A stretch of 64,000 nucleotides of DNA, taken from positions 2,496,001 to 2,560,000 of the forward strand of contig OZ244048.1 of the NCBI GenBank assembly GCA_965215265.1, given 5' to 3'. The position numbers and the translations under genes are program-made. This stretch comes from Candidatus Poribacteria bacterium. Lineage in GTDB: Bacteria; Poribacteria; WGA-4E; WGA-3G. The notes under the pieces are model-generated. The model was not told where the DNA came from and did no database searches. It worked only from the letters and a program-made list of their open reading frames with translations. Of the stretch, positions 1 through 34,809 are shown piece by piece (position 1 is the stretch's first letter; each line of letters starts with the position of its first letter).

Positions 1-268
1 GGTCGTTTTGTCCTTTGAATTCAAACAGATTATGCGTGCGTAAGTAAGAGAGCAGCGGGTTGGCACGCACTCTCGCGCGGGCTGCGGCGCTTTCGAGGAG
101 AGCGAGTGCATCTATACGCTGCGGCAACCGGTTCACTTCTATCTCTGTCTGGATAGAGGCACCCAGCCCAGAGAAGGGTAGGGCGAGGAACTCTTTGAAG
201 AAAGGGTCCCAGAGTTTCCGTTTGCTTTGTGTTTCTTTAGATGTCTCCGGCACTGTCGTTTGCCTCAT
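1..268 (-). CDS. Partial CDS (runs off left edge), putative PD-(D/E)xK/Rpn-like protein
   Basis: Manual translation from ATG 268: MRQTTVPETSKETQSKRKLWDPFFKEFL...QTEIEVNRLPQRIDALALL...HNLFEFKGQND. The D..FK / RID / EFK pattern resembles PD-(D/E)xK nuclease folds. Not in the ORF track. Confidence 0.6.
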   Translation of the reverse strand, partial: MRQTTVPETSKETQSKRKLWDPFFKEFLALPFSGLGASIQTEIEVNRLPQRIDALALLESAAARARVRANPLLSYLRTHNLFEFKGQND

Positions 269-3400: not shown

Positions 3401-3739
3401 ATGCGAGATATCCTCTACTTGCGTATCACTGAGATACAGCTCTTCCAAGTTAGTGAGGCCTGACAGATGCGAGATATCCTCTACTTGCGTACTGTCGAGA
3501 TCCAGATATTGCAAGTTGGTGAGGGTTGACAGATGCGAGATATCCTCTACTTGCGTACTGTCGAGCTCCAGCTCTTCCAAGTTGGTGGCGTATTCAAGTC
3601 CTGTCAGATTGCTAACGTTTGATTCCCTTAGATCGAGGTATGTCAAGCGGAGCATATCTGCCTGGGTGACATCCGTCCCCGCGGAGATGTAGAGTGTCTC
3701 CTCTATTTCCGCAAGGAGCGCCGCATCCGGAATGTTCAC
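467..3739 (-). CDS. Internalin-like leucine-rich-repeat protein fused to lamin-tail-like domains; secreted/surface protein (true start probably ATG 3906, across a C8 frameshift)
   Basis: N-cap VNIPDAAL, then 22-aa LRRs (LxxLxLxxTQVEDISxLSxL). Three lamin-tail-like segments (VVISEVLW..QWLELY; IVINEVGN..DWIELRN; VSISEIMF..QWIELHN). C-terminal PLPVxLSxF...YYYRIEDV domain and GKLTERWATLK tail. Confidence 0.85.
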   Translation of the reverse strand: MNIPDAALLAEIEETLYISAGTDVTQADMLRLTYLDLRESNVSNLTGLEYATNLEELELDSTQVEDISHLSTLTNLQYLDLDSTQVEDISHLSGLTNLEELYLSDTQVEDISHLSGLISLTTLFLTNTPVSDISHLSTLIKLDWLWLRNTQVSDISALSGLTELVKLNLRDTQVLDISPLSGLTNLLELYLRGTQVEDISPLSGLINLLELSLSDTQVEDISPLSTLTSLIGLDLSDTPVSDISPLSTLTSLISLNIRNARVSDISALSTLTKLTVVGFTDSPVSDISHLSTLPNLETLAKADYFTLSALAAGGFEVLTQEGSSSTTHGISSAVAPVETLTRNLSEFFRNGGTIELIAPKLTTGGAVKGDVVISEVLWGEDASQTPSSSGQWLELYAVKAVAATAVADDWALYFTTGDLVNRAEVTIGETPYLVIDSISNLGLGYWEVPGGGGRTVATDEAASASLVSMYRSIDFAKAEVEDGNRSDNWQASSAPSINLGGQRIGTPGSTPSQRIAAGDRTSFEGRKIVINEVGNHTDDSLDWIELRNDTDAAVSIKEWEFTLVTGDASARTEKVLVTLPDKSIAGGDVLLVANSNPEGNFLAGGNNLGVDDADEVQHGALHQYVVVSGLNLPADGKFLLLLRNKKEQKNKPIHIEDAAGAVFVPFVGTHDSQNYNTEVWPLQATPDPDKDIFKDIDEAFKEGSVYQRDNENNFAENAWSKRGFTGIGWDRDTPNADAYGGTPGYQNGVVKDKSAAGQVSISEIMFDTDNRLPQWIELHNSSLTEAVNLNDWTLRIQQDATTDTAVRPDVTLKFVGGKIIPPNQTLLIVTDTGRTSGHFPDARVINLRRESAYRDKLDLERRSPVLATTAFKLTLYGKEASGVKPVVDTVGNYVGRGEEPAWELPMLEDGRSSIIRRYGSASRATGAVAEDGTTEAGWVLAANTSLNEAQRDTFYGNAEDEGTPGYRGGGPLPVALSAFTAKRVEGAIVISWATESELNNAGFNLLRSDARNGTFTKINSELIAGAGTTGERNDYSWTDTSAKPNVVYYYRIEDVSNAGVQQTLQTTRLKGHLSADGKLTERWATLKSEE
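2850..3590 (-). repeat. About 11 tandem 66-bp repeats encoding the LRR units
   Basis: GAGATATCC recurs every 66 bp (2877, 2943, 3009 ... 3537). Confidence 0.95.
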
Positions 3740-4201: not shown

Positions 4202-4596
4202 ATTAAAAAGATGTGGAATATAGCAAGGTGAAGAAAGAGGATACCATCAAAGGATATAAGACAGAGAGTTGCGCTAATCTCTACGCCACGGTATGAAAGC
4301 ACTCTATTGGGTTGTCACCGGGTGGACAGGTTGGATTTATCGTTACTGAGAAACCCTCCGACGAGATTTTTAGTCTCTTTTAGCACAATAAAGGCAGTTG
4401 TGGCAGGTAACGTTTCATTTTCACATTCAAAAGAGAGGGGGATTTTATGAAAAGGGAAAAATAAAGAATCCTATACGTATTGTAAAAGAAAATACGTTAT
4501 TTTTCAAACAAATTTTCAAACCCGAAAAGTTTGATTTTCACCTTCACAGAGGAAAATCGGCTTGCTATTTGTTTTGAATTCTGCTATGATAAGGGC

Positions 4597-7500
4597 ATGC
4601 GAAACTTGAGACTGAACTCCAACAGTAAATCTGTGCGTGACTACTACACGACGCTGGAACGCTACGAACAGAGCCACATCGTTCACGAAGGTGCGGTGAG
4701 TATTCCGCTGGGGACGCTGCTGCAAACGTGTGCGCGACAGGTAGAGGCGGTATTTGTGCCGCAATATGCTATGCGTACGGAACGCGGAAACCGTATCGTG
4801 CTTGACGGTGCGATTCTTGATGAATACGAACTCCCTTTCGCTTATTGTGAAGCGAAAGACATGGCAGATGATCTGGAGCGCGAAATCATACGAAAGATTG
4901 ACGCGGGTTACCCGACATCTAATATCTTCTTCTACACGCCGCAGCGCGGTGTCCTCTATCAGAACGATCAGAGAGTGCTTGACGTAGACATGACGCAGCC
5001 TGACAGGCTCCTTGAGGCAGTGCAGCGTCTGTTTTCAGAGCCGTTTGCCGCGATTGAGAAGTGGCACGCCGCTGTTGCTGCATTCAAAGAGAGGGTCCCT
5101 GCGCTCGGGCGAGAACTCGCTCAACTCATCCGGCAACAGCACCAAACCAATACACGCTTCACCAGCGCTTTTGCTGATTTTTACCGGCAGTGCCGCGCAT
5201 CAATCAATCCGAATCTGTCTAAAGCCGCAGTGGAAGAGATGCTCATCCAACATCTGCTCACAGAACGCATTTTCCGCACCGTCTTTGATAATCCGGATTT
5301 TACACGCAGAAATATCATCGCCCGCGACATTGAAACCGTTATTGATGCACTCACGCACCACGCTTTCAGTCGAGACGGCTTCATGCGGCGTCTTGAGCCG
5401 TTCTATCGTGCGATTGAGCAAGCGGCGACGCTCTGCACGGATTTCTCGCAAAAACAACACTTTTTGAACACGGTTTACGAACAGTTCTTCCAAGGGTTCT
5501 CCATAGAAGTTGCGGATACGCATGGGATTGTCTATACGCCGCAACCGATAGTCGAGTTCATGGTGAAAAGTGTGGAATACCTCTTAGAAACCGAGTTCAA
5601 CCGTTCGCTTTCCGAGCCGGGTGTTCACATCATCGACCTGTTCGTTGGTACCGGTAACTTCATCGTGCGTCTGATGCAAGACATTGAAGGCACAATGTTG
5701 GAGGAGAAATACGGCGGGGAACTCCACTGCAACGAGTTGATGCTGTTGCCGTATTACATCTCCAGTTTGAACATAGAGCATGAATATTTCCGCCGGACGG
5801 GTGAATACCTGCCGTTTGAGGGCATCTGCCTTGTTGATACGTTTGAGTTGCTTGAATCAGAGCAGGCGCAACTCTTCACGCGTGAAAACACGGCCCGCGT
5901 TGAACGTCAGAAAGCGTCGGAGATGTTTGTAGTTCTCGGGAATCCGCCCTACAACGCTGGCCAGGTGAATGAGAACGATAACAACAAAAATCGGCAGTAT
6001 CCAGCGATGGATAAACGCATAGAGGAAACGTACGCGGCGGATTCCATGGCGCAGAACAAGAATAAGTTATATGATCCGTATGTGAAGGCAATTCGATGGG
6101 GGTTGGATAGGATAGGCGATGAAGGTATTGTCGCCTTGATAACGAACAATAGCTTCCTTGATGGCATCTCGTTCGATGGAATGCGGAAACATCTCGCGGC
6201 CGACTGCGATGCACTCTATGTTCTGGACTTGGGGGGCAATGCGAGGCGAGGCTTAAAGTGCTCTGACGCAAATGTCTTCGGAATCCAGGTCGGTGTCAGT
6301 ATCAACCTGTTTGTGAAGAAACAGCAAAAATCACCCGAGCCCTGCCGTATCTATTACCATCGCACTGATGAACTGTGGAATAGACAACGGAAGTTTGATT
6401 TTCTGAATGAACGCCAACATGCTGGGAATGTTGAGTGGCAAGCCATCGCCCCGGATGCCCGATACACTTGGCTCACGGAAGGACTCAACGCAGCGTTTGA
6501 TACCTTTATTCCTATCGGAACGCAGCAAGCAAAGAAAGCAAAAGAGGAGGCTGTGGATGTCATTTTCAAAACCTACAGCCTCGGTATTAGCACGAACCGC
6601 GATGCGTGGAGCCTCAACTTCAACGCCCAAGCGCTCTCTCAAAATATGCAGCGGATGATTGAGAACTACAACACGCAGGTTTTCAAGTGGCAGCATCAGA
6701 GCGCTCGAGGCACCAACGTTGATGATTTTGTGGAGGCTGATGCCACGAAAATTAAGTGGAGTTCCACGTTAAAACGGCATCTGAATAGCGGACATTTCGC
6801 TGAATTTAATGACTCAAAACTGCGGCGATGCCTCTACCGCCCTTTCACGAAGCGGGCGCTCTACTTTGATCGGATGCTGGTAGAGGGACCCCGGCTCTTT
6901 CCTTTCATATTTCCGACTCCTGAGACAGAAAAGGAAAACCAGGTAATTTGTGTAGCGGGTGTTGGAAATAGAAAAGGCTTTGGTTGTCTCGCAACAAATA
7001 TGATTCCTAATTTAGATGTGGCATTTGAAAAAACGCAATGCTTCCCTTTCTATACCTACGCCGAGGACGGCAGCAACCGCCGTGAAAACATCACGGAGTG
7101 GGCATTGGCAGCGTTCAGAACTCACTACGGCGAGGACACCATCAGCAAGTGGGACATCTTTCACTATACCTATGCACTCTTGCATCAGCCCGACTATCGC
7201 GAAACTTATCAGATGAATCTCAGGCGCGATTTACCTCACATCCCATTTGCACCAGATTTCTGGGCGTTCGTGAACATTGGCGCGCGGTTAGCAGAACTTC
7301 ACGTCAACTATGAAACGCAGCCCGAATCTGCAGGCTTGCAGTTTATTGAGACACCTAATGTCCAGCGGGATTGGCGCGTAGAGAAGATGAGATTCTCGAA
7401 AGAGAAGACGCAGCTACACTACAACGACTTCCTGACGATAGCCGGTATTCCGGATGAGGCGTTTGCGTATCGTTTAGGTGCGCGTAGTGCGTTGGAGTGG

Positions 7501-7662
7501 GTAGTGGATGGGTATCGTGTGAAGGTAGACAAACGGAGTGGCATTGTGAACGATCCGAACCGTGCGGATGTGCCGAAATATATTGTAGCATTAATCGGAC
7601 GGGTTGTGTCGGTAAGTTTAGAGACGGTGAAGCTTGTGGGGCAGCTGCCGCCGCTAGCATGA
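4597..7662 (+). CDS. Fused restriction-modification enzyme (type IIG / helicase-less type ISP-like N6-adenine MTase with N-terminal nuclease-like domain)
   Basis: LDG...YCEAKD nuclease-like motif; GIVYTPQPIV; motif I DLFVGTG; motif IV GNPPY; type ISP-like C-terminal specificity region (LYRPF, YRLGARSALEW, SGIVNDPN). Start placed at ATG 4597. Confidence 0.85.
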   Translation: MRNLRLNSNSKSVRDYYTTLERYEQSHIVHEGAVSIPLGTLLQTCARQVEAVFVPQYAMRTERGNRIVLDGAILDEYELPFAYCEAKDMADDLEREIIRKIDAGYPTSNIFFYTPQRGVLYQNDQRVLDVDMTQPDRLLEAVQRLFSEPFAAIEKWHAAVAAFKERVPALGRELAQLIRQQHQTNTRFTSAFADFYRQCRASINPNLSKAAVEEMLIQHLLTERIFRTVFDNPDFTRRNIIARDIETVIDALTHHAFSRDGFMRRLEPFYRAIEQAATLCTDFSQKQHFLNTVYEQFFQGFSIEVADTHGIVYTPQPIVEFMVKSVEYLLETEFNRSLSEPGVHIIDLFVGTGNFIVRLMQDIEGTMLEEKYGGELHCNELMLLPYYISSLNIEHEYFRRTGEYLPFEGICLVDTFELLESEQAQLFTRENTARVERQKASEMFVVLGNPPYNAGQVNENDNNKNRQYPAMDKRIEETYAADSMAQNKNKLYDPYVKAIRWGLDRIGDEGIVALITNNSFLDGISFDGMRKHLAADCDALYVLDLGGNARRGLKCSDANVFGIQVGVSINLFVKKQQKSPEPCRIYYHRTDELWNRQRKFDFLNERQHAGNVEWQAIAPDARYTWLTEGLNAAFDTFIPIGTQQAKKAKEEAVDVIFKTYSLGISTNRDAWSLNFNAQALSQNMQRMIENYNTQVFKWQHQSARGTNVDDFVEADATKIKWSSTLKRHLNSGHFAEFNDSKLRRCLYRPFTKRALYFDRMLVEGPRLFPFIFPTPETEKENQVICVAGVGNRKGFGCLATNMIPNLDVAFEKTQCFPFYTYAEDGSNRRENITEWALAAFRTHYGEDTISKWDIFHYTYALLHQPDYRETYQMNLRRDLPHIPFAPDFWAFVNIGARLAELHVNYETQPESAGLQFIETPNVQRDWRVEKMRFSKEKTQLHYNDFLTIAGIPDEAFAYRLGARSALEWVVDGYRVKVDKRSGIVNDPNRADVPKYIVALIGRVVSVSLETVKLVGQLPPLA

Positions 7663-10212: not shown

Positions 10213-11412
10213 CTAAAAGAACTGTGCATCTACAATTTCGCCTGCCTGCATTCTGGCGCCGGCTGGAATGGTAATTAGCCCGTTGGCCAAGACGAGCGAA
10301 TGAAGGATGCCGGAGCCTTGGGGTCCGGTTGTTTTCGCTGTGTAGTTCCCCCCATGTTCTGTTAGAATGGCGCGCATATAGTTGACTCTTCCATCTCTGT
10401 TTACGATATTTTCTGCGAGGGCGGCTTTGAAGGTTGGCCGTAACAGTTGGGAGTGTCCGGCCATTTTGAGGAGTGCTGGACGCACGAACAGTTCGAAGAC
10501 CACGAGGGAAGAGACTGGATTGCCGGGCAATCCAAAGATCGGTTTTCCGTCAGCAATCCCGTAAGCTTGCGGTTTTCCGGGTTTCATAGCGACACGCCAA
10601 AAGTTAATCTTTCCCAATTTCTCCAACACATTTTTAACGATATCGTGCTCGCCGACTGAAACCCCGCCGCTGGTGATGAGTGCGTCGGCTTGCGCCAGGG
10701 CAGCCCGAAATGTCTGTTCTGTTTCTGCTTCGTCGTCACGGGCAATCCCGATATCTATCGGAATAGCCCCTGCTTCCTTGACTTGTGCATAAATTCCGTA
10801 GCGGTTGCTATCTCGGATTTTTCCGGGGGTGAGTTGCTCGCCGAGGGGTGTCAACTCGTCGCCGGTCGAAACGATTGCGACGGTAGGTTTTCGATGTACC
10901 GTTACCTTATTGCAATTGAGGGAGGCGAGCATAGAGATTTCTGGTGGGCGGAGCTGCTTTCCGGGTGCCATGACGCGTTCGCCTCGCTTCACGCTCTCTC
11001 CGGTGAATCGGACGTTTCGGTTTTCGTCAACATCCTCAAAAATGTTGACGGTATCGTTTTGTTGTTGTGTTACCTCTTGCATGACGACGGCATCAGCGCC
11101 GTGTGGCATCATTGCGCCTGTCATAATCCGTGCTGCTTGACCTGGCTGGACAGGTTTGGTGGGTGCATATCCGGCTGCGATTGTCTCCACGATGGTGAGT
11201 ATAACAGGATTATCTTTCGACGCGCCCTGCACATCTGAGGCATGGACAGCGTAGCCGTCCATCGCCGAATTGTCAAACGGCGGTATATCTTCAGCGGCAT
11301 AGAGTGCTTCGGCGAGGACATATCCAAAGCAGTTGAGGATATTGCGTTTTTCTGTTGATAAAACAGGAATGGTGTCTAGCATCTGTTGACGTGCGGCTTC
11401 AACACTTAGCAT
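10213..11412 (-). CDS. moeA: Molybdopterin molybdotransferase MoeA
   Basis: PPFDNSAMDGYA, IMTGA, STGDEL, ITSGGVSVG, MKPGKP, LPGNPVS. Start placed at MLSVEAA. Confidence 0.95.
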   Translation of the reverse strand: MLSVEAARQQMLDTIPVLSTEKRNILNCFGYVLAEALYAAEDIPPFDNSAMDGYAVHASDVQGASKDNPVILTIVETIAAGYAPTKPVQPGQAARIMTGAMMPHGADAVVMQEVTQQQNDTVNIFEDVDENRNVRFTGESVKRGERVMAPGKQLRPPEISMLASLNCNKVTVHRKPTVAIVSTGDELTPLGEQLTPGKIRDSNRYGIYAQVKEAGAIPIDIGIARDDEAETEQTFRAALAQADALITSGGVSVGEHDIVKNVLEKLGKINFWRVAMKPGKPQAYGIADGKPIFGLPGNPVSSLVVFELFVRPALLKMAGHSQLLRPTFKAALAENIVNRDGRVNYMRAILTEHGGNYTAKTTGPQGSGILHSLVLANGLITIPAGARMQAGEIVDAQFF

Positions 11413-11513
11413 GATAATTTTTCTCCATTTCGTTTTGTATTGTTGCATATCATATAACATAAAGACGGTAACTGCAAGCAGTTATTTTGCTGCGGCTTGT
11501 CATAAAATTTTAT

Positions 11514-11542
11514 TTGACATTGATGCAATCATATCGTATAAT
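11514..11542 (+). promoter_or_regulatory. Consensus sigma70 promoter with overlapping imperfect palindrome (possible Fur/Zur-family operator)
   Basis: TTGACA-17 bp-TATAAT; the spacer/-10 region contains ATGCAAT-CAT-ATCGTAT (imperfect 7-3-7). Confidence 0.75.
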
Positions 11543-11576
11543 ACTTAAAAAGTGTAGTTCACAAGTCAGTAAAATT

Positions 11577-11900
11577 ATGAAGAACGACAAAATTTTTAAG
11601 CTACTGATACTGATAGGCCTTTGTGGTTATGCGGTTGTGTTCGCTTTCGTCGCGTTAATGCATACCCATGAGCATCACGTGTGTTCTGATTCGGTTGAGG
11701 ATTGCACGGCGTGTTTCTATGATGTCCATCATATAGCGGAGGCGATTCCTCTCGTTGCATCTGTTGTGCGGGAATGTTGGATTGCAATCCAGCCCGGTTA
11801 TGATGCGATTTTCCTCTCCGTCAACCTTTCCTATAGCGCGCTCAGCCGGGCGCCGCCCTCTCCTCCTATTTATCAAAAAGCCGATGTTGGGCTAGTTTAA
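11577..11900 (+). CDS. DUF2946/CruR-like leader protein with His-rich, CxxC and RAPP motifs
   Basis: TM/signal segment, HTHEHH, DCTAC, C-terminal SRAPP; first ORF of a metal-uptake operon. Confidence 0.75.
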   Translation: MKNDKIFKLLILIGLCGYAVVFAFVALMHTHEHHVCSDSVEDCTACFYDVHHIAEAIPLVASVVRECWIAIQPGYDAIFLSVNLSYSALSRAPPSPPIYQKADVGLV

Positions 11901-12163
11901 CAAATCGGCTACCCCTATACGTATATCTTTTGAAAAATCCATAGTTCATTCGCGAATTATTTACCGTTTATCGCTGTAAGACTATGGTTTACTGTCTGCG
12001 TGCCTAATTCTTTACGCGCCGAGTTCTTCGTGCCATAATTATAACACGAGTGCACAGATTTGAACGGGAGGTCTTCGCGCAATTGTCATGAATTAGACTT
12101 TATTTTAACGCGGATTGAACGCTAAGCTAGAAGAATACCGATGAATAGATAAAATTGGAGGAT

Positions 12164-12808
12164 ATGATGTTTAAGCAATTCCGTAAGTGCGGTGGCGCAC
12201 ATTTTTCAACTTTTCAAGTAACTTTACTCAGTTTTGCCGTAGTGCTGCTCCTTTTTGGATGTGGTGAAGATGATAACCCAATTGTGGACGAGCATGAGCA
12301 CGAGCACGAAGAAGCGCCTTTCCACGCAGATGCTGATGGGTTTTTGCTAAAAGTGGATGGCGCGGAAGTTTATAGACAATTCCAAGGCACCGCAACCGGC
12401 GGGCTCACCGTTGGTGTCGGCGAAGAAGTCGAGGTTCACGTTAGATTCCTTAGTCCGAACGGGGATGAATTCCTGCCTAGTGGGACAGAGGAACACGATG
12501 AACATGAACACGCCGAGCATGGAGAAGAACCGTTTTTCCTTAATTTAACCGGTTACGATATCGCGATTGCTGATATCCATCTTCATGAAGAACATGAAGA
12601 ACATGAAGAACATGAAGAACATGAAGAACATGAAGAACATGAAGAACATGAAGAACATGAAGATGAGCACCACGATGAAGCCGGTGAAAAGTGGGTGTTT
12701 GAAGTCGTTGGCGTGAAGGCCGGCAAAACCGACATCAAGCTGCAACTATTTCATGGTGACCACGCTGATTTTACCGCGGCCCTCTTGATTCCTGTGACGG
12801 TTCAATAG
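12164..12808 (+). CDS. His/Glu-rich lipoprotein, putative metal-binding
   Basis: Lipobox LLFGC; three His-rich tracts; HADADG and HGDHADF motifs; SD GGAGG. Confidence 0.8.
   Translation: MMFKQFRKCGGAHFSTFQVTLLSFAVVLLLFGCGEDDNPIVDEHEHEHEEAPFHADADGFLLKVDGAEVYRQFQGTATGGLTVGVGEEVEVHVRFLSPNGDEFLPSGTEEHDEHEHAEHGEEPFFLNLTGYDIAIADIHLHEEHEEHEEHEEHEEHEEHEEHEEHEDEHHDEAGEKWVFEVVGVKAGKTDIKLQLFHGDHADFTAALLIPVTVQ
12584..12664 (+). repeat. 9-bp tandem repeat (CATGAAGAA)x8 plus one variant, encoding HEE
   Basis: Perfect copies 12584-12655, then CATGAAGAT. Confidence 0.97.
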
Positions 12809-12859
12809 CGATAGGAAGCGATATAAGCACACTATTGCTATTGAAAAGGAGAGGATATT

Positions 12860-15172
12860 ATGAGTAGGGTATCGATGCTTTTACGGAATACTGACGGATT
12901 AACTTGCTGTTCGAGAACGTGCGCGAAAAAGTGGTTACTCGCGTTTGGCACGGCGTGTCTGTTCTGTACCGTCAAGTATACCGCCTGCAGTGAGGTTAGA
13001 AGATTTCCGCTCCGCGGGCAGGTTATTGACGCGCAGCACCGTGTTCCTCTTGAGAGTACTGTCGTTAGTATCGTTATAAATGCATTCGACGATAGAGAGA
13101 ATAGAGATTCTGTTTCCACGCGTACAGTTCGTAGCGATGCGGGTGGGTGGTTTGACTTTCAAGGTGTTCCTGAAGGCAAGCAAAAACTTCGGATTGTCAA
13201 GGCGGACTATCATCCGTTTGAACAAGTGATTGATGTTGATAGTTCCACGGCTGAGCTGCAAGTCGTGCTGAAAAAAGTCGCCTTTCAACTAGAGGGCATT
13301 ACGGTGTATGGCTCAAGTCGTGGCCTACCGCAGCTTGATGCGACAACAGGCTTTGCACTTGATGAGGTTGCACTTCAGAAGCGCCTTGGAATGACTTTGG
13401 CCTCCACATTAACCAATGAGCTGGGTGTGTCCGAACGGACGTTGGGGCGTGCAGTCGCGCGTCCTGTCATCCGTGGGCTCGGTGGGAACAGGCTACTGAT
13501 TCTTGAAAATGGTGTTCGGACGGGCGATAAATCTGCGTCCAGTGCAGACCACGCTGTCGCCTTCGATCCGACTTCAGCTAAGAATGTTGAAATTACGCGC
13601 GGGCCGGCATCGCTCCTATACGGTTCGAGTACGCTTGGGGGGGTTGTGAACGTTCGAAGCAACAGCATATCAGCCGTGTTGCCGAAACATCCGAGCATGG
13701 ATTTGAGTTTCCAGAGTGAAACAGTCAATTCAGGTGTGATGGCGAATACGAGGGTTGCTGTTCCAGTCGGCGACTTTGCAGGAGTGATGGAATGGAACCG
13801 CCGGCTGGCTAAAGATACGCGTACGCCGCTGGGCATATTAGAGAACACAGCGGTCTCAAATATTAATTTTTCAACGGGAGCGTCCATAATTCAGGAGTGG
13901 GGCCATCTGGGGCTATCGGGTGGCAGTTACCGTTCGCATTACGGCATTCCCGGTTCTCCTGAGGGACATATCACCGGTGTGAACATCGTGCTGGATCGGC
14001 AGCGGTATGAGGGCCAATTGGAGTACGGTTTCAGTCGTGCGTGGCTGGATAAAATCAAGTTCCGGGGGGCATATACGCGTTACCAGCATCAAGAATTGGA
14101 GTCAAACGGCAGCATCGGTGTTGAATTCGGGGTGCTAACGTACAGCGTTTCAGCAATGGCGCATGTTTTTGACAATGCGATCATGGGGGTTTGGTGGCAG
14201 TACCGGGACCATGCCACAGGTGGATTTTATTGGACACCGCACACGCGCGAGTTTGCGTTGGCGGGATTCTATCTGAACCAACGCAATTTTGATAGGTTCA
14301 CCTTACAGGGTGCTATCCGTTATGACATAAGCCGCACCGCTCCGTTTTATCCGGGTACAGTCATACGTGCTGGAGCTGTAGAACAGCGTGATTTTAACGG
14401 TGTCTCCGGTGCGGTTTCCGGGATTTACCGTTGGAACGATCGGATAAGTGCTGGTGGCACGTTAATGAAGACGTTTCGTGCGCCGGGTATAGAGGAGCTC
14501 TTTTCGGACGGTCCGCATTTAGCTATCTATTCGTATGAAATCGGCAATGCGGCGTTACCAGCCGAGAACGGCTATGGGAGCGAACTGTTCGGGCGTTATT
14601 CAAGCGACAGGGTCAAGTTCAAATTGGCGCTGTTCCACAATCAGATAGAAAATTATCTTATTCCGACGAACACTGGCGAAAAAGATTGGGGAAGCGGTGC
14701 GGCGGGATGGTTGTGGATTTACCAGTACATGGGGCAGGACGTTGTGATGGATGGTGTGGAAATAGAGTTTCAAAGCGAGGTTCTGCCCCGTTTTCACGTC
14801 CAATTCGGTGTGAGTTACCTTAACGGCAGGATTACATCCGGTGCGCAAGCGAGAAAACCGTTGGAACGGATACCGCCTTTGAACGGCAAATTCGCTCTCC
14901 GTTACATCCGGGTGCCGTTTGAGGTCCATCTGACAACCCGGTTTTCAGCGAGTCAGACCCGCCTTGGCGAATTTGAGGAGCCGACAGACGGCTATCTTGT
15001 CTACGATGCCGGCTGTTACTTCAATTTACCGTGGTGGAAACTCGAGAATATAGTAGTTCTTGAGGTAGAGAACCTGTTGGATACGGCTTACCGCGAGCAT
15101 CTTTCTCGCATCAAATCGATTATGCCGGAGCCGGGGCGGAATGTCAAATTTTTGTATAAACTTAATTTTTAA
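12860..15172 (+). CDS. TonB-dependent receptor (ZnuD-like metal uptake)
   Basis: N-terminal carboxypeptidase-regulatory-like domain; plug RPVIRGLGGNR, SADHAV, RGPASLLYGS; C-terminal NLLD...PGRN...F. Confidence 0.9.
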   Translation: MSRVSMLLRNTDGLTCCSRTCAKKWLLAFGTACLFCTVKYTACSEVRRFPLRGQVIDAQHRVPLESTVVSIVINAFDDRENRDSVSTRTVRSDAGGWFDFQGVPEGKQKLRIVKADYHPFEQVIDVDSSTAELQVVLKKVAFQLEGITVYGSSRGLPQLDATTGFALDEVALQKRLGMTLASTLTNELGVSERTLGRAVARPVIRGLGGNRLLILENGVRTGDKSASSADHAVAFDPTSAKNVEITRGPASLLYGSSTLGGVVNVRSNSISAVLPKHPSMDLSFQSETVNSGVMANTRVAVPVGDFAGVMEWNRRLAKDTRTPLGILENTAVSNINFSTGASIIQEWGHLGLSGGSYRSHYGIPGSPEGHITGVNIVLDRQRYEGQLEYGFSRAWLDKIKFRGAYTRYQHQELESNGSIGVEFGVLTYSVSAMAHVFDNAIMGVWWQYRDHATGGFYWTPHTREFALAGFYLNQRNFDRFTLQGAIRYDISRTAPFYPGTVIRAGAVEQRDFNGVSGAVSGIYRWNDRISAGGTLMKTFRAPGIEELFSDGPHLAIYSYEIGNAALPAENGYGSELFGRYSSDRVKFKLALFHNQIENYLIPTNTGEKDWGSGAAGWLWIYQYMGQDVVMDGVEIEFQSEVLPRFHVQFGVSYLNGRITSGAQARKPLERIPPLNGKFALRYIRVPFEVHLTTRFSASQTRLGEFEEPTDGYLVYDAGCYFNLPWWKLENIVVLEVENLLDTAYREHLSRIKSIMPEPGRNVKFLYKLNF

Positions 15173-15241
15173 TCCTTAATTTTGCAGTGTATAAATAGCG
15201 TGCTTTACAAGCGTGCTATTTATACATGCATAGGAGTTAGT

Positions 15242-15637
15242 GTGAACAAACATTTTAATAGTGAAATTTTAGATAATACCGGCGCGTGTCTTTCTTTTGC
15301 GTGTGCCATTCATTGTCTTGCCATGCCGCTTTTGGTTGTTGCTTTACCACTTCTCGGACTCGGTTTCCTTGCGAGTGAACCAACTGAGCGGATATTGCTG
15401 CTCGGAGCGATTGTGCTCGCAGTTGGAAGCATCACTTGGGGAATTCAACACCATCGGCAATGGCGTGCCTTTCTCATCCTACTTGCAGCGATGACGTTTC
15501 TAGGCATCGCTAAAACCGTTGAGGTAGGCAGTTTTGAGGTAGTTTTTCACAGTTTAGGTGCTGTCCTGCTTGCAGCTGCGCATCTCTTAAATCGTTATTT
15601 GTGCCGGACATGCCCGGCCTGTGAAAAAGGAGAGTAA
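15242..15637 (+). CDS. MerC domain-containing membrane protein
   Basis: LD..G..LS.ACAIHCLA.P and C-terminal AH.LN; SD GGAG before GTG 15242. Confidence 0.85.
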   Translation: MNKHFNSEILDNTGACLSFACAIHCLAMPLLVVALPLLGLGFLASEPTERILLLGAIVLAVGSITWGIQHHRQWRAFLILLAAMTFLGIAKTVEVGSFEVVFHSLGAVLLAAAHLLNRYLCRTCPACEKGE

Positions 15638-15803
15638 CGTCAACCGCGAGACACGTGTCTTGGGCCTGAAGAGTCTGCTTGTTTACGGGATATTGGAGGT
15701 GCGCTTTGTCGGCGCACCTCAACGTTTATAGCGGTGTTGGAAACACGCAATCCCAATTTTGCCCCACGGTATCTCGTCTGCGGCTTTGTCGTCAGAAATC
15801 CGT

Positions 15804-16322
15804 TCAATTAATTAAGAGGAGCATGCCAATCTTTGCGGAGATAATGCCGAGGATGGATCCAGCGATAACATCGGTTGGATAGTGGATACCGAGATAAACG
15901 CGCGAAAATCCTACCGTTGTCGCCCAAATTTGCATCGGGATGCGGAATTCTGGAAGGATTTGTGAGAGCAGGGTTACCATCGCAAATGCGGCGGCGGTGT
16001 GCCCAGATGGGAAGCTGAACACGTCCCGCGGTGCCATGAGAAATTCGACCTGATCGAGACGTTCAAAAGGACGTTGCCGTTTCAGGGTTAGTTTCAGCGT
16101 CCAATAGAGCGAACGTTCTAGTGCGAACGCAAATAGGGCGGTTATGAAAAGCGACTTTTCAAATAGTAGCAGGTACCCCGCGATAATAGCATAAAGATGA
16201 CCGTCAGCACTGCGAGATACGCCTAACATGAAAAAATCCGGGTATCTCCTTCCGTTCCATCCAAAGATCCGGTAGAACAGCTGCGTATCCCAATGCCGGA
16301 GGCGATTAACAAATTCTGGCAT
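15804..16322 (-). CDS. PAP2 family phosphatase
   Basis: KxxxxRxRP, SFPSGH, SRVYLGIHYPTD. Confidence 0.92.
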   Translation of the reverse strand: MPEFVNRLRHWDTQLFYRIFGWNGRRYPDFFMLGVSRSADGHLYAIIAGYLLLFEKSLFITALFAFALERSLYWTLKLTLKRQRPFERLDQVEFLMAPRDVFSFPSGHTAAAFAMVTLLSQILPEFRIPMQIWATTVGFSRVYLGIHYPTDVIAGSILGIISAKIGMLLLIN

Positions 16323-16596: not shown

Positions 16597-17259
16597 TCAA
16601 ATATCTTTTAGAGTGTTATTGATGCGGTGCGCGTTTTCGAAATCTGCGGGTGTATTCACATTGAAAAAAGAGAGGCCTTCTGCATCAAACGGTTGCCAAC
16701 GTTCAGGGGGTACTGTCCGCATCCGGACGCGGTGATAGAGTTCATGGACGCGTAGTTCGGATTCATTCAGCATTTTTTCAATTACACGGAGCCCCTGCTT
16801 AGAATAGACAGCGCATAAGGTTTGCAGCGTTCTCTTTTTTTGAATGCAGGTATACGGCACAACCGCATCATATTCGTCCAAAAGGGAGACGAGATACGTC
16901 AGCAGCTTCGGTTCTAAAAATGGCGTATCGCAAGCGACACAAAGTGCAGCGTCATACGAAGCATAGGTTAACCCTGTGTGGATTCCACCGAGTGCTCCTG
17001 CGTTGGGAATAATATCTATGTGTCGAGGTACGTCAAATTCAGTATATGCCTCAGGGCTATTGGTGATAAGCAGCAGTTCATCTGTCACGGTGCGCATGCG
17101 ATGGATAACATGTCCAATGAGAGTCTCGTCTCCGATGCGCATCAACGCCTTATTTTGTCCCATCCGTCTGCTGTTGCCACCGGCAAGGATAACCCCGGTG
17201 ACAGGTTTTTGTCGGTAGTAGCGTTCAGGACTCTCTGGTGTGAAAGCGTTTGTGCTCAT
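16597..17259 (-). CDS. mobA: Molybdenum cofactor guanylyltransferase
   Basis: ILAGGNSRRMGQNKA, GALGGI, ACDTP, FNVNTP. Start placed at MSTNAF. Confidence 0.92.
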   Translation of the reverse strand: MSTNAFTPESPERYYRQKPVTGVILAGGNSRRMGQNKALMRIGDETLIGHVIHRMRTVTDELLLITNSPEAYTEFDVPRHIDIIPNAGALGGIHTGLTYASYDAALCVACDTPFLEPKLLTYLVSLLDEYDAVVPYTCIQKKRTLQTLCAVYSKQGLRVIEKMLNESELRVHELYHRVRMRTVPPERWQPFDAEGLSFFNVNTPADFENAHRINNTLKDI

Positions 17260-17338
17260 CGCGGCAGACTCCTTTTTTGATGATGGAAGCGTTTTGCATG
17301 TGCATATAGCATTCCGTCTGTGCGAATATTCCTTGCGG

Positions 17339-18523
17339 TTACTCGTCAGTGCCTTTTTGGCTGATACGTTCAATAACATCGACAATTAACTCGCCTACTT
17401 GCTGTAGACTTTCTACAGAGAGGAGTTCGCCTCGATCTTGTTTGGAGTGAACTTTTAAGGTGACGCTGCTTGCACCGCCCGCCGTTAACGTAACCGTTTC
17501 TAATCCACGGCTCGCAATCGGAATGCTATCCAATCCGACACCGACAGGAAGATACCTCTCTGTAATCTGGACACCGAGGGATGCTCCGGATGCTTGGAAC
17601 CAGGTTCTCAGCTTAGCGGTGGTGCAAACGGGTGGAATCCCGTAGCGTGTAACGAGATTCACTCTGTTTCCGATGCCGAGTCCGTCTAAGTTGATAATAT
17701 AGGTGCGATTGCGGTTATGTTCATCAGCATGCTTCTGTATATAGCGTAACGCTCCACACATGCCGTATTCTTCTGCCCCAGTCGCGAGAAAGGTCACAGG
17801 TGTCTTGTTCCCACGTGCTGTTACAGTGCGTGCGACTTCCAAGAGAACGCCAACCCCCGAAGCGTTGTCGAAACCACCGGGAGACTGGTTTTGGGTTAAA
17901 TTGATTTGTAACAGCAATAGACAAAAACTGGTAATGCCTGCAATAGCCCAGGCTATGGCATCAGGTAACCCAGCGAAACCGATGAGCTGAATTACCGTAG
18001 CGATTATTAAAAGAATAAGTCCAAAAATTGAGACACCGTAAGCGGCAGCACGGACGGCAATCGGCAAAACCTGCGATTTAGAGTCGTAGTGTGCTACTAA
18101 GATCACGGTGGGAATCTTGCTATCTTGTGTCTCGCCTGTCGTTGCGACAATATTCTCCGAGCAATGTTTTCTGCCAACCTCGTACAACCTCTCTGCCCAT
18201 TTCTGCCAACGCGTGAATATTATAGCTATAGCGAGCGCGAGTACGCAGGCGAGACATATAGGGAGAGGAAACTGTTCACCTAACCATGGGACAGAGATGA
18301 CGATCGGCGTGATAAAAGCACATAAGATACGGGGCAATACTTCGGCGGGGAATTTCGTAAAGTGGAAGCGTTCCCGCTGAAGGTGCAGTCCAAATTTTGT
18401 GAATTGCTGTATGATATATTCTTGTGCCTTTGCCTCGCCTTCGCTGCCGGCAAGTCTCGGTACAGCGAGATGCCTGATGTGATGGTATGCGCGTTTTGCG
18501 TTATAATTGTGGTTTGTGCTCAT
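17339..18523 (-). CDS. Membrane-bound M28 family peptidase
   Basis: AHYDS, DNASG, AEEYG, INLD, H.KQD; TM segments. Confidence 0.85.
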   Translation of the reverse strand: MSTNHNYNAKRAYHHIRHLAVPRLAGSEGEAKAQEYIIQQFTKFGLHLQRERFHFTKFPAEVLPRILCAFITPIVISVPWLGEQFPLPICLACVLALAIAIIFTRWQKWAERLYEVGRKHCSENIVATTGETQDSKIPTVILVAHYDSKSQVLPIAVRAAAYGVSIFGLILLIIATVIQLIGFAGLPDAIAWAIAGITSFCLLLLQINLTQNQSPGGFDNASGVGVLLEVARTVTARGNKTPVTFLATGAEEYGMCGALRYIQKHADEHNRNRTYIINLDGLGIGNRVNLVTRYGIPPVCTTAKLRTWFQASGASLGVQITERYLPVGVGLDSIPIASRGLETVTLTAGGASSVTLKVHSKQDRGELLSVESLQQVGELIVDVIERISQKGTDE

Positions 18524-31834: not shown

Positions 31835-32518
31835 CTATGGGTTCTCTGTTATGACTTTTTTTAAATCCTCAATGAAATGCTCAAACAACTTGACTTTGTC
31901 GCTTTCCTCGAGTTCTGCTGCCGTTAGCACATAGGTGCCATCAAGCTCTGTTTCCACAATGGCTCGTTCTTTCCTTGCAGGATTCAGCTTTGTCAAGTCG
32001 TTGTCCGTATCAGGTGTAAACAGATAAACCTTGATATGTGCTGTGCGTTTTCCTTCTAGGAGTTTAGACTTCCAATAGCCTGTTTGGGCAATACGTTCTC
32101 TCAAAGAGGTTTTACTTGAAATAATAGCAATGACTTGTGAATTTTCCGGTTTGTAAATAACAATATCAGCATCAGGTAAATATAACCCAAATTCCTTGTA
32201 ATCAATTGTCACGTTTTGCTTAACAGCATGTAATTCTGGCGATAGCATGCGACGATCTAATGTGCTGCCGTTAATCAACTTAAGTCCAAGTGCTTCGATT
32301 GAATCAGTGATAATATATTGGAGGAGTTTTTCAAAATTCTTTCCCTTAAAAGAACGCCAACTTTGCCCCTTATCTTTTTCTGGTTTGTGTGCATCAAGAT
32401 AAGCGGCATGCAACACCTGAGCCTTTTTCAAGAGTTCTTGAACATATTTGTAAGTTTCTTCTCCTTTTTCGTCTTTCATTTTATTATATAGATTTTTCAA
32501 ATCTTCGAAATTTCGCAC
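31835..32518 (-). CDS. BsaWI-family type II restriction endonuclease, paralog A
   Basis: QSWRSFKGKNFE, LPDADIV, SSKTSLRERIAQTGYW. Confidence 0.8.
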   Translation of the reverse strand: MRNFEDLKNLYNKMKDEKGEETYKYVQELLKKAQVLHAAYLDAHKPEKDKGQSWRSFKGKNFEKLLQYIITDSIEALGLKLINGSTLDRRMLSPELHAVKQNVTIDYKEFGLYLPDADIVIYKPENSQVIAIISSKTSLRERIAQTGYWKSKLLEGKRTAHIKVYLFTPDTDNDLTKLNPARKERAIVETELDGTYVLTAAELEESDKVKLFEHFIEDLKKVITENP

Positions 32519-32665
32519 AGTTGCTCATTCCTTTAATCCGATAAGAATGTGTCCATCGATTACACTTCTGTGGTAGACAAGACCTTGTGTGAAACGATGT
32601 TCGGCTTGAACTGCCTATGCAATGCGGTGTATGCGCTATTCAAAGTAGTTCAAGGACTAGTTTGC

Positions 32666-33337: not shown

Positions 33338-33348
33338 GATTATCTTAT

Positions 33349-34662: not shown

Positions 34663-34809
34663 GGATTGAGATATATCCTCTCTCGTTGTAAATAAAATTA
34701 GTATATCGTACAATTTAGCAGATATCAACGAAAAAAGATAGTAAATTAAAAATAGGCGCGCGAGGTGCCCCAGGGTATCCGTGATTCTGAAGAGAGGGAA
34801 ACCGTGAAA

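Follow-up and report, generated by a model that had tools for sequence, protein, structure and literature searches.

What does a short open reading frame do at the head of an operon for metal uptake, separated by a long gap from the genes behind it? Here we analyse such a locus within a 64,000-nucleotide stretch of DNA from Candidatus Poribacteria (the window), and describe why we consider the frame probably to be a regulatory leader of the CruR/CutF (DUF2946) type, at which a ribosome stalled on the motif RAPP would uncover the ribosome-binding site of the next gene. A preliminary description had listed a consensus promoter followed by a 107-aa frame with a membrane or signal segment and the motifs HTHEHH, DCTAC and SRAPP, a gap of about 260 nt, and genes for a His-rich lipoprotein, a ZnuD-like receptor and a MerC-like protein; every one of these is present, confirming what was observed there, and its interpretation of the frame as a metal-sensing arrest-peptide attenuator is partly supported by the analyses below. 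The promoter, the leader with its motifs, and the genes downstream are arranged as follows.

11514..11542, + strand: sigma-70 consensus promoter (TTGACA 11514-11519, 17 nt, TATAAT 11537-11542)
11577..11900, + strand: leader frame, 107 aa, remotely DUF2946/CruR-like, putative RAPP arrest peptide (ATG 11577, stop 11898-11900)
11592..11660, + strand: hydrophobic segment of the leader, residues 6-28, signal anchor by hydropathy
11661..11678, + strand: HTHEHH, residues 29-34, by translation (H29 and H31 invariant)
11703..11714, + strand: CTAC (C43-x-A45-C46), putative metal ligand pair, by translation and conservation
11847..11858, + strand: RAPP codons CGG GCG CCG CCC, putative arrest site, invariant and 44 residues after C46
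11901..12166, + strand: long untranslated intergenic region, from the ORF map
12167..12808, + strand: His/Glu-rich lipoprotein, by its lipobox (LLFGC) and composition
12860..15172, + strand: ZnuD-like TonB-dependent receptor (Pfam Plug 3.5e-15, TonB barrel 2.3e-29)
15182..15637, + strand: MerC-family inner-membrane protein, putative metal permease (PF03203, 3.7e-23)

The leader gene, its family and its operon

The promoter agrees with the consensus at 12 of 12 positions and is the sole such site within 11300-15900; the scan returned 8 promoter-like sites in total against 6.2 +/- 2.1 in shuffled sequences. Of 52 upstream regions, comprising those of 51 leader copies from related loci and that of the window, 47 contain a promoter of the form TTGAC[AT]-16..18-TA[TC]AAT. 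The leader's N-terminus, MKNDKIF, aligns with the MRNG and MKNG starts of its relatives; a longer start at TTG 11487, given in the ORF listing, was rejected as its position is 5' of the promoter. Kyte-Doolittle means over 19 residues reach 2.74 within residues 6-28. The positive-inside rule is an established basis for orienting membrane segments and, since the sequence ahead of this segment is Lys-rich and that behind it acidic, we infer an N-in/C-out topology. DCTAC corresponds to residues 42-46 (11700-11714) and SRAPP to residues 90-94 (11844-11858). RAPP is rare in the window, being carried by 2 of the six-frame ORFs of at least 40 aa.

The window's leader has no match in Pfam or NCBIfam. 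A phmmer search over 1.84 billion representatives returned 7 true relatives and a profile search 120 clusters, giving a family of about 120 relatives; all of the source names and 48 of 49 genome titles read Candidatus Poribacteria. Residues H29, H31, C43, A45, C46, R91, A92, P93 and P94 are invariant in an alignment of eight sequences, which is free of gaps between CxxC and RAPP. Of 123 family proteins, 122 carry both motifs at a distance of 41-46 residues, which is 44 in 99 proteins and 45 in 11. Given a conserved family in which the motif residues are invariant and their spacing is fixed, the leader goes beyond chance and is a real gene.

The PF11162 (DUF2946) profile, to which the preliminary description had pointed, finds no match at E<=1 in the window's own protein; among its relatives there are weak, in-register matches in 72 of 119 at E<=0.1, nearly all of them sub-threshold, with only two proteins exceeding the cut-off of 23.7 bits (P0015, 24.5; P0018, 29.6). 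The matches inspected extend to the final profile position (117 of 117), near RAPP. The leader family thus appears to be a remote relative of DUF2946/CruR, a homology that rests on relatives of the window protein. An ESM-Atlas neighbour cluster, 54% of whose members carry PF11162, offers a lead only.

The leader is the first gene of its operon, and in the window and related loci alike it is followed by a long gap and then by TonB-dependent receptor genes. The lipoprotein is followed by a complete receptor in 40 of 49 related loci, the other 9 stopping short of a complete receptor frame; a leader lies upstream in 39 of these 40 (L048 has a leader fragment only), and a MerC gene follows the receptor in 36. 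Homologues of the lipoprotein, 53-65% identical, occur in 44 loci. Its mature part of 182 aa contains 23 His, 39 Glu and 15 Asp and has no Pfam or NCBIfam match; the AlphaFold model (pLDDT 72.9) predicts an Ig-like beta-sandwich with disordered HE-repeat loops, for which comparison with the PDB returned generic Ig-like matches only (TM about 0.3). The best NCBIfam model for the receptor is ZnuD, at 172.9 bits, far under the cut-off of 950, and the copper receptor model gives 45 bits against 472; by sequence its nearest PDB structure is likewise ZnuD (4rdr, 7.4e-27), with PhuR next (1.4e-10). The MerC-family protein scores 82.6 bits with PF03203, against a cut-off of 27.6.

Relationship to known nascent-chain sensors

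RAPP-type arrest peptides such as ApdA and ApdP combine a C-terminal RAPP with an N-terminal localisation signal, and in SecM-secA, MifM-yidC2 and VemP-secDF2 the arrested ribosome keeps the mRNA from forming a pairing that would conceal the ribosome-binding site further downstream. An arrest-prevented pairing of this kind over the downstream ribosome-binding site is what we would propose for the Poribacteria leader; SecM, MifM and VemP differ from it in monitoring protein export and in using local stem-loops, and none has the His/Cys ligand set. A survey of RAPP/RGPP uORFs describes the same combination of C-terminal RAPP and N-terminal localisation signal in genes upstream of their putative targets, with TonB-dependent receptors among the enriched downstream genes, and its main text has no mention of zinc (PMC12992588).

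In CruR (Bp2923) of Bordetella pertussis, the CxxC-RAPP spacing of 45 is conserved to within 1-2 residues and a change by 5 breaks regulation, which is reported to act via Rho termination (PMC9426467); arrest was shown in vitro, the P and A sites being occupied by the two Pro codons (PMC12992588). The hallmarks of this system are found in the Poribacteria family. The gene is small, comes first in its operon and encodes an export or membrane signal at the N-terminus; RAPP lies 44 residues after CxxC (45 in CruR); a long intergenic region separates the gene from those for a TonB-dependent transporter and an inner-membrane protein; and the relatives give weak in-register PF11162 matches, though the window protein itself gives none at E<=1. 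In contrast to CruR, however, RAPP lies 13 rather than 3 residues from the C-terminus, an invariant HxH pair is added to CxxC, the downstream genes encode a ZnuD-like receptor, a His-rich lipoprotein and MerC where CruR accompanies a copper-type transporter and a PepSY_TM protein, a conserved anti-Shine-Dalgarno sequence (anti-SD) is present at the putative stall site where CruR is reported to be Rho-based, and the host is Ca. Poribacteria. This host does place the system outside Proteobacteria, as had been suggested, which is not in itself new: DUF2946 is also described in Planctomycetes, Firmicutes and Deinococcus (Roy et al., PMC9426467), and RAPP uORFs ahead of TonB receptor genes in various Gram-negative phyla (PMC12992588).

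CutF of Rhodobacter capsulatus, a DUF2946 protein, is likewise a nascent sensor that is exported, has a pair of Cys residues and stalls through a C-terminal proline motif (PMC9973294), and its stalling exposes the masked Shine-Dalgarno sequence (SD) of the next gene (PMC9973294; 10.1101/2025.02.05.636593), as may happen here. It differs in its CxxxC, its PPP-type motif and its short spacer with a local stem-loop, and in controlling a copper-induced detoxifying multicopper oxidase instead of importers (PMC9973294); the putative masking partner of the Poribacteria system lies within the leader frame, about 290 nt from the SD.

Conservation of the entire stretch between CxxC and RAPP across the main clade (e.g. 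LPFYEAVFLPLRLTTNTRSRAPPVFSN) would also suit a stable small membrane protein that, for example, binds metal as a partner of the receptor or MerC, or serves as an anti-sigma-like sensor, with no arrest-based control and with RAPP and the SD complementarity as by-products; some DUF2946 relatives without the proline motif, such as CzcI, are thought to act as proteins (PMC9973294). We regard such a role as very improbable, given that RAPP is invariant and a demonstrated arrest motif, in CruR among others (PMC12992588), that its distance from CxxC is fixed as in CruR, that the gene is invariably first with a long gap after it, and that the anti-SD falls exactly at the stall site. Conservation ahead of RAPP would moreover be expected from the tunnel contacts of an arrest peptide.

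Complementarity between the putative stall site and the lipoprotein Shine-Dalgarno region

The spacer measures 263 nt if the lipoprotein starts at ATG 12164 and 266 nt if it starts at ATG 12167, the likelier choice because relatives show a GGAG+6+ATG spacing; equivalent gaps span 182-576 nt in 45 related loci. Within 11901..12166 no terminator-like site was predicted and no Rfam match was found, and the region from leader to SD as a whole is no more stably folded than shuffles (z = -0.20). Three further features are relevant to how the downstream genes may be controlled.

11787..11930, + strand: C-rich, G-poor stretch, possible Rho-loading region (C/G 1.3-2.2 in 78-nt windows)
11859..11874, + strand: putative anti-SD TCTCCTCCTATTTATC, codons S-P-P-I-Y-Q, from MFE pairing and duplex energy
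12148..12162, + strand: lipoprotein SD region GATAAAATTGGAGGA, partner of the anti-SD (GGAGGA at 12157-12162)

The latter two pair in the window's MFE fold with a duplex energy of -14.8 to -15.2 kcal/mol; when 8000 24-mers were drawn at random from the window, only 14 equalled this pairing. This anti-SD is positionally equivalent to the GTATTCTCCAAT anti-SD of 45 related loci, in which the 12 nt directly 3' of the RAPP codons are complementary to the lipoprotein SD region. The best SD complement in leader and spacer begins 1-12 nt past the Arg codon's first base in 39 of 46 loci; four of the 7 exceptions have a mis-set start codon and, once start codons are corrected, all 46 loci pair, at -9.0 to -20.5 kcal/mol. 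In the fixed 12-bp register 485 of 540 cells are paired (89.8%), against 36-60% with the partner slid by 1-3 nt, and in 30 of 45 loci no other 12-mer does as well as the post-RAPP one. The core that pairs with GGAG varies mostly by C-to-T changes that retain G-U pairs, and the window's GGAGGA/TCCTCC represents an A-U to G-C double change relative to the GGAGAA/TTCTCC of its relatives; clear double changes are few within the 45 loci (one cell, at position 1).

Pro93 and Pro94 of the leader would, by analogy, occupy the P and A sites of the arrested ribosome, because the CruR toeprint places its prolines there, and the anti-SD core therefore lies 8-13 nt 3' of the first base of the P-site codon (PMC12992588). 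We thus place the anti-SD, putatively, inside the downstream footprint of a RAPP-arrested ribosome.

Support for the helix consists mostly of conservation among fairly close relatives, and in a synonymous-site test the codons that follow RAPP did not stand out. A second, slightly better SD complement occurs in the window at 11747-11766 (-16.6 kcal/mol). Ser and Pro codons readily produce CCUCC-type anti-SD sequences, and the best complement of second-copy leaders lies away from any SD in 7 of 9.

Proposed mode of control and the likely metal signal

The conserved pairing with the lipoprotein SD suggests that control works by unmasking translation, as it does in CutF or SecM. The strong promoter would yield a single transcript of leader, 266-nt spacer, lipoprotein, receptor and MerC; the nascent leader would be anchored through its membrane segment and the ribosome would arrest at R91-A-P-P94. 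The following 15 nt or so would then be buried in the ribosome and unable to pair with the SD some 290 nt downstream, so that the uptake genes would be translated. Were the arrest released, the ribosome would terminate 13 codons further on, the anti-SD would pair with the SD and reduce translation starts, and the long naked RNA may also become accessible to Rho.

Rho termination within 11900-12160 was the output envisaged by the preliminary description; only the C-rich, G-poor stretch was seen, as a hint of Rho loading, and the conserved anti-SD was found instead. A pure CruR-type attenuator, in which arrest at RAPP bars Rho, release leads to termination in the 266-nt spacer and the anti-SD is incidental or secondary, is nevertheless the mode shown experimentally for the closest characterised system, with its downstream TonB receptor and 162 bp spacer (PMC9426467). 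It would fit the long, untranslated spacer with no intrinsic terminator predicted within it, the C/G ratio of up to 2.2 in 11787-11930, and a conserved hairpin with TTTG, 40-90 nt past the leader stop in related loci, as a possible pause site (86.9% of cells paired against at most 54% when slid; two pairs with double changes). We nonetheless judge it unlikely as the sole mode: the match of the 12 nt after RAPP to the SD, seen in 45 related loci and kept in the window with different bases, is left unexplained, the C-rich stretch consists mostly of Pro and Ser codons, and RNAalifold gave no structure for the 5' part of the spacer. Rho attenuation and anti-SD masking are compatible with each other.

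Release of the arrest, in the unmasking model that we favour, would most likely be signalled by metal bound to nascent H29, H31, C43 and C46, a set kept at a constant distance of 44 residues from RAPP; as the operon serves import, metal would be expected to relieve arrest and turn the operon off, like CruR. Alternatively, the leader could sense membrane insertion or export, in the manner of SecM, MifM, VemP or ApdA/ApdP, or metal-induced arrest could turn the operon on as in CutF. The membrane segment and SD-masking partner do match the output logic of CutF and SecM, the first RAPP arrest peptides bearing N-terminal localisation signals came to light upstream of Sec/YidC genes (PMC9973294; PMC12992588), and copper-induced stalling during co-translational export opens a shielded SD in CutF (PMC9973294; 10.1101/2025.02.05.636593). 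These options seem quite improbable here, since the downstream genes encode a receptor, a His-rich lipoprotein and a MerC permease rather than Sec or YidC components, and the invariant His and Cys residues at a constant distance from RAPP favour a ligand; an importer induced by its own metal would presumably be unusual.

The preliminary description had pointed to Zn, Ni or Co, and the context supports zinc, rather than copper, as the likeliest signal, because the receptor is ZnuD-like, the leader carries an invariant set of 2 His and 2 Cys in the eight-sequence alignment, and zinc-type genes lie near second leader copies. To our knowledge, the DUF2946 proteins studied to date are copper sensors, and CxxC is a classic Cu(I) site. 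Also counting against zinc, none of the ZnuD and AztC/AztD scores comes near its curated cut-off, and the COG0523 protein encoded near one second copy scores as CobW too. In related loci a ZnuA-family protein (Pfam 1.9e-81; best NCBIfam model AztC, 3.3e-64) follows MerC, and in nine of them a second promoter and leader copy adjoins the ZnuA/AztC-like binding protein. This second copy heads AztD-like genes (2e-10) or a Cys-rich gene, which in L044 is followed by the COG0523 GTPase gene.

The leader gene, its family and its operon

The elements named in the preliminary description, namely a consensus promoter, a short leader open reading frame (ORF) with a membrane segment and His, CxxC and RAPP motifs, and the lipoprotein, receptor and MerC genes that follow it, were all located in the sequence, and that observation is confirmed. 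The features of the locus, including the Shine-Dalgarno (SD) region of the lipoprotein gene and its putative complement (anti-SD) within the leader, are as follows.

11514-11542 (+): sigma-70 promoter, TTGACA, 17 nt, TATAAT; 12 of 12 consensus positions, the sole perfect site in 11300-15900
11577-11900 (+): leader ORF of 107 aa, from the ATG at 11577 to the stop codon at 11898-11900
Leader residues 6-28: hydrophobic segment, Lys on its N-side and acidic residues on its C-side
Leader residues 29-34, 42-46 and 90-94: HTHEHH, DCTAC and SRAPP, respectively
11859-11874 (+): putative anti-SD TCTCCTCCTATTTATC, in the codons S-P-P-I-Y-Q
Untranslated gap after the leader: 263-266 nt
12148-12162 (+): SD region GATAAAATTGGAGGA, the partner of the anti-SD
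12167-12808 (+): lipoprotein, mature part of 182 residues with 23 His and 39 Glu
12860-15172 (+): TonB-dependent receptor, ZnuD-like
15182-15637 (+): MerC protein

Inspection of the sequence before the leader ATG found no strong SD. TTGAC(A/T) and TA(T/C)AAT, separated by 16 to 18 nt, occur in 47 of 52 upstream regions, and the promoter and its surroundings are near-identical between loci. Conservation extends far beyond the hexamers (11490-11576 in the window; upstream regions of the related loci L001-L047), into the promoter spacer (often ATTGACACAATCGTATG) and approximately 20 nt past the -10 element (TTATCGCAAGTTTATTGGCA in relatives), a pattern which suggests an operator. An ATTG-N3-CAAT palindrome in the promoter spacer was dropped as the operator candidate, being present in just 33 of the 52 regions.

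A word-indexed homologue search with the single leader gave 4 candidates and, among them, no homologue but the leader itself. When 1.84 billion representatives were scanned in full with phmmer, 7 true relatives of 97-121 aa emerged, with three further matches (P0002, P0006 and P0009) left out of the family as repetitive or long proteins. In the resulting alignment of 8 sequences, H29, H31, C43, A45, C46, R91, A92, P93 and P94 are invariant and the stretch from CxxC to RAPP is gap-free. Profile searching enlarged the family to 120 clusters; where an organism name is given, as in a few of them, it is Candidatus Poribacteria. Both motifs are present in 122 of 123 proteins, with 44 residues between them in 99 (as in the window leader), 45 in 11 and 41, 42 or 46 in the rest, while the distance from RAPP to the C-terminus is 13 residues in the window leader but usually 4 or 10-11 among relatives. 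Scanning genomes with the main clade identified 49 loci, 48 of which are titled Poribacteria and one 'uncultured bacterium'. On this comparative evidence the leader is a real, conserved gene; the window copy derives from a divergent lineage of the phylum, since it shares only 30-41% identity with the others.

Four metagenome proteins (P0123-P0126) form a further subfamily, presenting the same design in another lineage: a membrane segment, then 4-5 consecutive His and a CAAC that 44 residues (as counted in P0123) separate from an SRAPP with 4 residues after it. Among the excluded matches, P0002 (721 aa) consists of a unit of approximately 57 aa, matching leader residues 31-68, repeated 12 times in tandem, and P0006 (133 aa) has two CxxC...FLSV..LSRSRLG units that are leader-like and lack RAPP; both may be mis-translated or repeat-derived ORFs.

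The gene order MoeA (opposite strand), leader, long gap, His-rich lipoprotein, receptor and MerC is conserved. The lipoprotein is followed by a complete receptor in 40 of the 49 loci, with the leader upstream in 39 of these (L048 has a leader fragment only) and MerC present in 36; in the remaining 9 loci the sequence stops short of a complete receptor ORF. Between leader and lipoprotein lie 182-576 nt in 45 related loci, compared with 266 nt in the window. The window operon is bounded by a divergent MoeA gene upstream and a convergent PAP2 phosphatase gene downstream. Molybdenum-cofactor genes thus lie on both flanks, this MoeA at 10213-11460 (-) and a MobA-like NTP transferase at 16597-17385 (-), and the MoeA adjacency is kept in 37 of the 49 related loci.

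The lipoprotein is predicted (pLDDT 72.9) to form an Ig-like sandwich with disordered His/Glu loops; a structure search returned generic Ig-like matches only, with no specific structural relative or functional lead. The receptor scores 172.9 bits on its best NCBIfam model, ZnuD (cut-off 950), and reaches 45.3 bits on TIGR01778, the copper-receptor model, whose cut-off is 472; its closest solved structure by sequence is ZnuD (PDB 4rdr, 7.4e-27; next 1.4e-10). We therefore term it 'ZnuD-like' on sequence grounds, rather than a ZnuD equivalog. The MerC protein matches PF03203 at 82.6 bits (gathering score 27.6) over profile positions 1-107 of 108.

Comparison with CruR and other DUF2946 leaders

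Leaders of the DUF2946 family (PF11162), which includes the copper-sensing CruR of Bordetella pertussis, are described by Roy et al. (PMC9426467) as defined by CxxC and RAPP 45 residues apart, conserved to within 1-2, with an export signal (a signal peptide or an N-in/C-out membrane segment) in >95% of members, and as standing first in operons before a long intergenic region, often with TonB-dependent transporters downstream. The window leader reproduces this architecture point by point: it possesses a CxxC (C43-T-A-C46) whose 44-residue distance from RAPP, versus 45 in CruR, lies inside the 1-2-residue tolerance, as do most relatives within their range of 41-46; an N-terminal membrane segment whose charge pattern fits an N-in/C-out topology; and a position at the head of the operon, with the promoter directly upstream and a long gap after it. 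Spacing is important in CruR, where lengthening the CxxC-RAPP distance by 5 residues abolished copper control (PMC9426467), and CruR was shown to arrest in vitro while its two Pro codons occupy the P and A sites (Fujiwara and colleagues, PMC12992588).

The suggested DUF2946 HMM search did not recover the leader, which has no PF11162 match at E<=1. When 119 relatives were scanned (P0123-P0126, of the same architecture, were left out), 72 matched at E<=0.1 and only 2 exceeded the 23.7-bit cut-off, the matches inspected covering the last 65-85 profile positions and ending at position 117 of 117. Relaxing the profile search to E<=10, with the aim of retrieving labelled DUF2946 proteins, added just 3 matches, and a tblastn search of plasmids for classical DUF2946 genes with a high-GC relative (P0010) matched nothing. 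Neighbours in the ESM-Atlas are unnamed clusters of approximately 100 aa from Verrucomicrobiota and Acidobacteriota, one with PF11162 on 54% of its members, which we treat as a lead only. Because the architecture matches point by point but the curated profile misses the window leader, we consider it at best a remote relative of DUF2946 and not a member by the curated threshold. That threshold misses whole clades of such leaders, the approximately 120 clusters found here being almost all unannotated.

The leader also differs from CruR in the position of RAPP, 13 residues from the C-terminus compared with 3 in CruR (PMC9426467), and in its inner-membrane partner, which is MerC and not PepSY_TM. 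Indeed, the copper partners of DUF2946 (OprC-type transporter, PepSY_TM, PCuAC, YcnI, CopC and Sco) are unmatched by the partner genes in the window. The earlier interpretation of a CruR-like metal-sensing attenuator is partly supported, the architecture being borne out and the DUF2946 profile match not; by analogy, we infer that the leader may work like CruR and CutF, the DUF2946 leader of Rhodobacter capsulatus. Links to other metals are on record, with DUF2946 genes located beside Zn/Co/Cd efflux genes, namely CzcI (PMC9973294) and Caulobacter CC2720 beside czrCBA (PMC4176598). DUF2946 is reported from a few non-proteobacterial phyla (PMC9426467), and RAPP/RGPP upstream ORFs occur before TonB receptors across Gram-negative phyla (PMC12992588).

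Complementarity between the leader and the lipoprotein ribosome-binding site

The leader and spacer were searched for the best complement to the lipoprotein SD region. Its start falls 1-12 nt past the first base of the RAPP Arg codon in 39 of 46 loci; 4 of the 7 missing loci are explained by a mis-set start codon and, with starts corrected, pairing is present in all 46 (-9.0 to -20.5 kcal/mol). Main-clade leaders follow RAPP with the codons GTA TTC TCC AAT (V-F-S-N), whose reverse complement is exactly ATTGGAGAATAC, the sequence before the lipoprotein ATG. With the register fixed at 12 bp across 45 loci, pairing occurs in 485 of 540 cells (89.8%), compared with 36-60% when the partner is slid by 1-3 nt, and the post-RAPP 12-mer is strictly the best of all 12-mers in leader and spacer in 30 of the 45, with ties in most others. 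Variants of the core that pairs with GGAG are mainly C-to-T changes, which preserve G-U pairs, one kind being a Ser-to-Phe change. Much of this signal is nevertheless conservation because the related loci are kin, and a synonymous-site test found the post-RAPP codons indistinguishable in conservation from the rest of the leader. Among the second-copy leaders described below, 7 of 9 lack a strong SD complement.

The window was counted apart and not column-wise, because its spacer aligns with those of its relatives only at the SD. Both partners are altered relative to the main clade, from GGAGAA/TTCTCC to GGAGGA/TCCTCC, and the pairing is retained in the minimum-energy fold; of 8000 24-mers drawn at random from the window, just 14 equal it. 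A second candidate SD partner lies at 11747-11766, and the fold of 11840-12175 is no more stable than shuffled sequences (z = -0.20). If Pro93 occupies the P site, counting from the first base of its codon would put the TCCTCC core 8-13 nt downstream, within the stretch of mRNA that a ribosome covers. The complementarity is present in the sequence, and its putative function is an mRNA pairing that masks the SD, following the logic of SecM and CutF.

We regard RAPP arrest coupled to SD unmasking as a reasonably probable reading of this arrangement. The transcript would begin approximately 28 nt ahead of the leader ATG, and the N-terminal segment of the nascent leader would enter the membrane with the N-in/C-out orientation indicated by the hydropathy and charge distribution of residues 6-28. 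A ribosome arrested at RAPP would cover the anti-SD, leaving the lipoprotein SD open and the import genes translated; once released, it would finish 13 codons on, allowing the anti-SD to shut the SD. The 44-residue spacing would place C43 and C46 just outside the exit tunnel and H29 and H31 approximately 63 residues from the peptidyl-transferase centre, and metal-driven compaction at these His/Cys positions could pull on the chain. An engineered zinc finger reportedly pulls on the chain with SecM, in work by Nilsson et al. in 2015. Such metal-driven pulling on the nascent chain has been proposed for CruR (PMC9426467). The polarity expected of an importer would be that metal frees the arrest and the operon is switched off.

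After release, the long untranslated RNA may also serve as a Rho substrate, an idea raised by the C-rich, G-poor stretch at 11787-11930 and by a TTTG-ended hairpin in related loci. Looking for the Rho-dependent termination earlier suggested for 11900-12160 brought up this C-rich stretch only; a terminator scan found none within the spacer. Rfam returned nothing at gathering scores over the whole window, and RNAalifold predicted 0 pairs in the 5' spacer part of 24 related loci. The hairpin, GT(A/C)CAAAG ... CTTTG(T/G)AC, is semi-conserved 40-90 nt past the leader stop in these loci (columns 63-116 of the spacer alignment); its inner stem is GC-rich, its loop resembles CCTATAC, and TTTG follows it. 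Its helix, drawn by eye, has modest support, with 86.9% of cells paired versus at most 54% when slid and double changes at 2 pairs. The window carries CCTATAC at 11914-11920 without a comparable stem.

Candidate metal, second leader copies and neighbouring genes

A second copy of the leader, approximately 6 kb downstream of the first and with an almost identical promoter, was found in 9 related loci; the window has one copy only.

Second leader copies in related loci (locus, coordinates)
L012: 13101-13484
L017: 10566-10937
L019: 13104-13517
L022: 13123-13494
L030: 13222-13635
L038, L041 and L043: 6959-7372
L044: 7001-7372

In the two loci inspected, L012 and L044, this copy stands after a ZnuA-family, AztC-like metal-binding lipoprotein gene (L012:11123-12088; L044:5074-6039), itself directly after MerC and overlapping its end; the protein matches its Pfam family at 1.9e-81, and its best NCBIfam model, AztC, at 3.3e-64 lies below the cut-off. 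The corresponding position in the window is occupied by the convergent PAP2 gene. The second copy heads an AztD-like gene in L012 and L019 (2e-10, on a truncated N-terminus) and a Cys-rich 150-aa gene in 5 loci (L017, L022, L038, L041 and L044), followed in L044 by a small ORF and a COG0523 CobW/ZigA-type GTPase gene. Among the other 45 large ORFs of the 64-kb window, Pfam detected no member of the Zur, ZnuABC or COG0523 families.

On balance we lean towards zinc as the signal, most of the remaining probability going to copper and cobalt/nickel. Zinc is favoured because the ligand set comprises two His and two Cys, because the receptor is nearest the ZnuD type (NCBIfam and PDB 4rdr) and low on the copper-receptor model, and because the sister operon has AztC-, AztD- and COG0523-like genes. 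Counting against it, the ZnuD, AztC, AztD and COG0523 scores are all under curated cut-offs and the COG0523 protein scores as CobW too; CxxC is typical of Cu(I) sites, and His-rich proteins also bind Ni, Co and Cu.

To our knowledge, copper is so far the sole metal for which control by a nascent peptide has been demonstrated (CruR and CutF), and unmasking of an SD by a stalled ribosome is established for SecM. Such unmasking is also described for CutF (PMC9973294), and CruR/DUF2946 leaders are known before TonB transporters (PMC9426467). The titles and abstracts returned by the library searches described no zinc-responsive leader of such kind, and the supplements of PMC9426467 (Table S1) and PMC12992588 may list Poribacteria or similar loci. 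What appears new from these comparisons is a Poribacteria-wide leader clade mostly missed by Pfam, an extra invariant HxH together with a zinc-type gene set, the use of one promoter-leader-SD module before two operons, and a putative anti-SD within the codons right after RAPP with a reach of approximately 180-580 nt.

As a tentative and, taken whole, rather doubtful proposal, this could be the first zinc-sensing nascent peptide, in which a His2-Cys2 site times the RAPP arrest, the arrested ribosome hides an anti-SD whose reach of approximately 300 nt would otherwise shut the ribosome-binding site of a zinc-import operon, and the promoter-leader-SD module before at least two operons constitutes a translational zinc-starvation regulon of Poribacteria that complements or replaces Zur. 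The regulon, if true, would follow from one such module preceding, in related genomes, both the receptor operon and the AztD/COG0523 operon. A zinc-tuned relative, differing in ligand set and read-out, would mark the DUF2946/RAPP design as a general, retunable metal sensor; furthermore, ribosome arrest could work at long range on a ribosome-binding site, and metal regulation in this uncultivated phylum would gain a first handle.

Elsewhere in the window, restriction-modification or defence-type genes lie at 4531-7659 (+), 31838-34728 (-), 35590-36958 (-) and 54530-57301 (+). The set comprises a Type ISP enzyme, a DUF1156 protein, a pair of adjacent BsaWI-like endonuclease ORFs accompanied by an N6/N4 methylase, and an HNH endonuclease accompanied by a second methylase. 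The gene at 470-3739 (-) encodes a protein of 1090 aa that combines leucine-rich repeats with lamin-tail domains.
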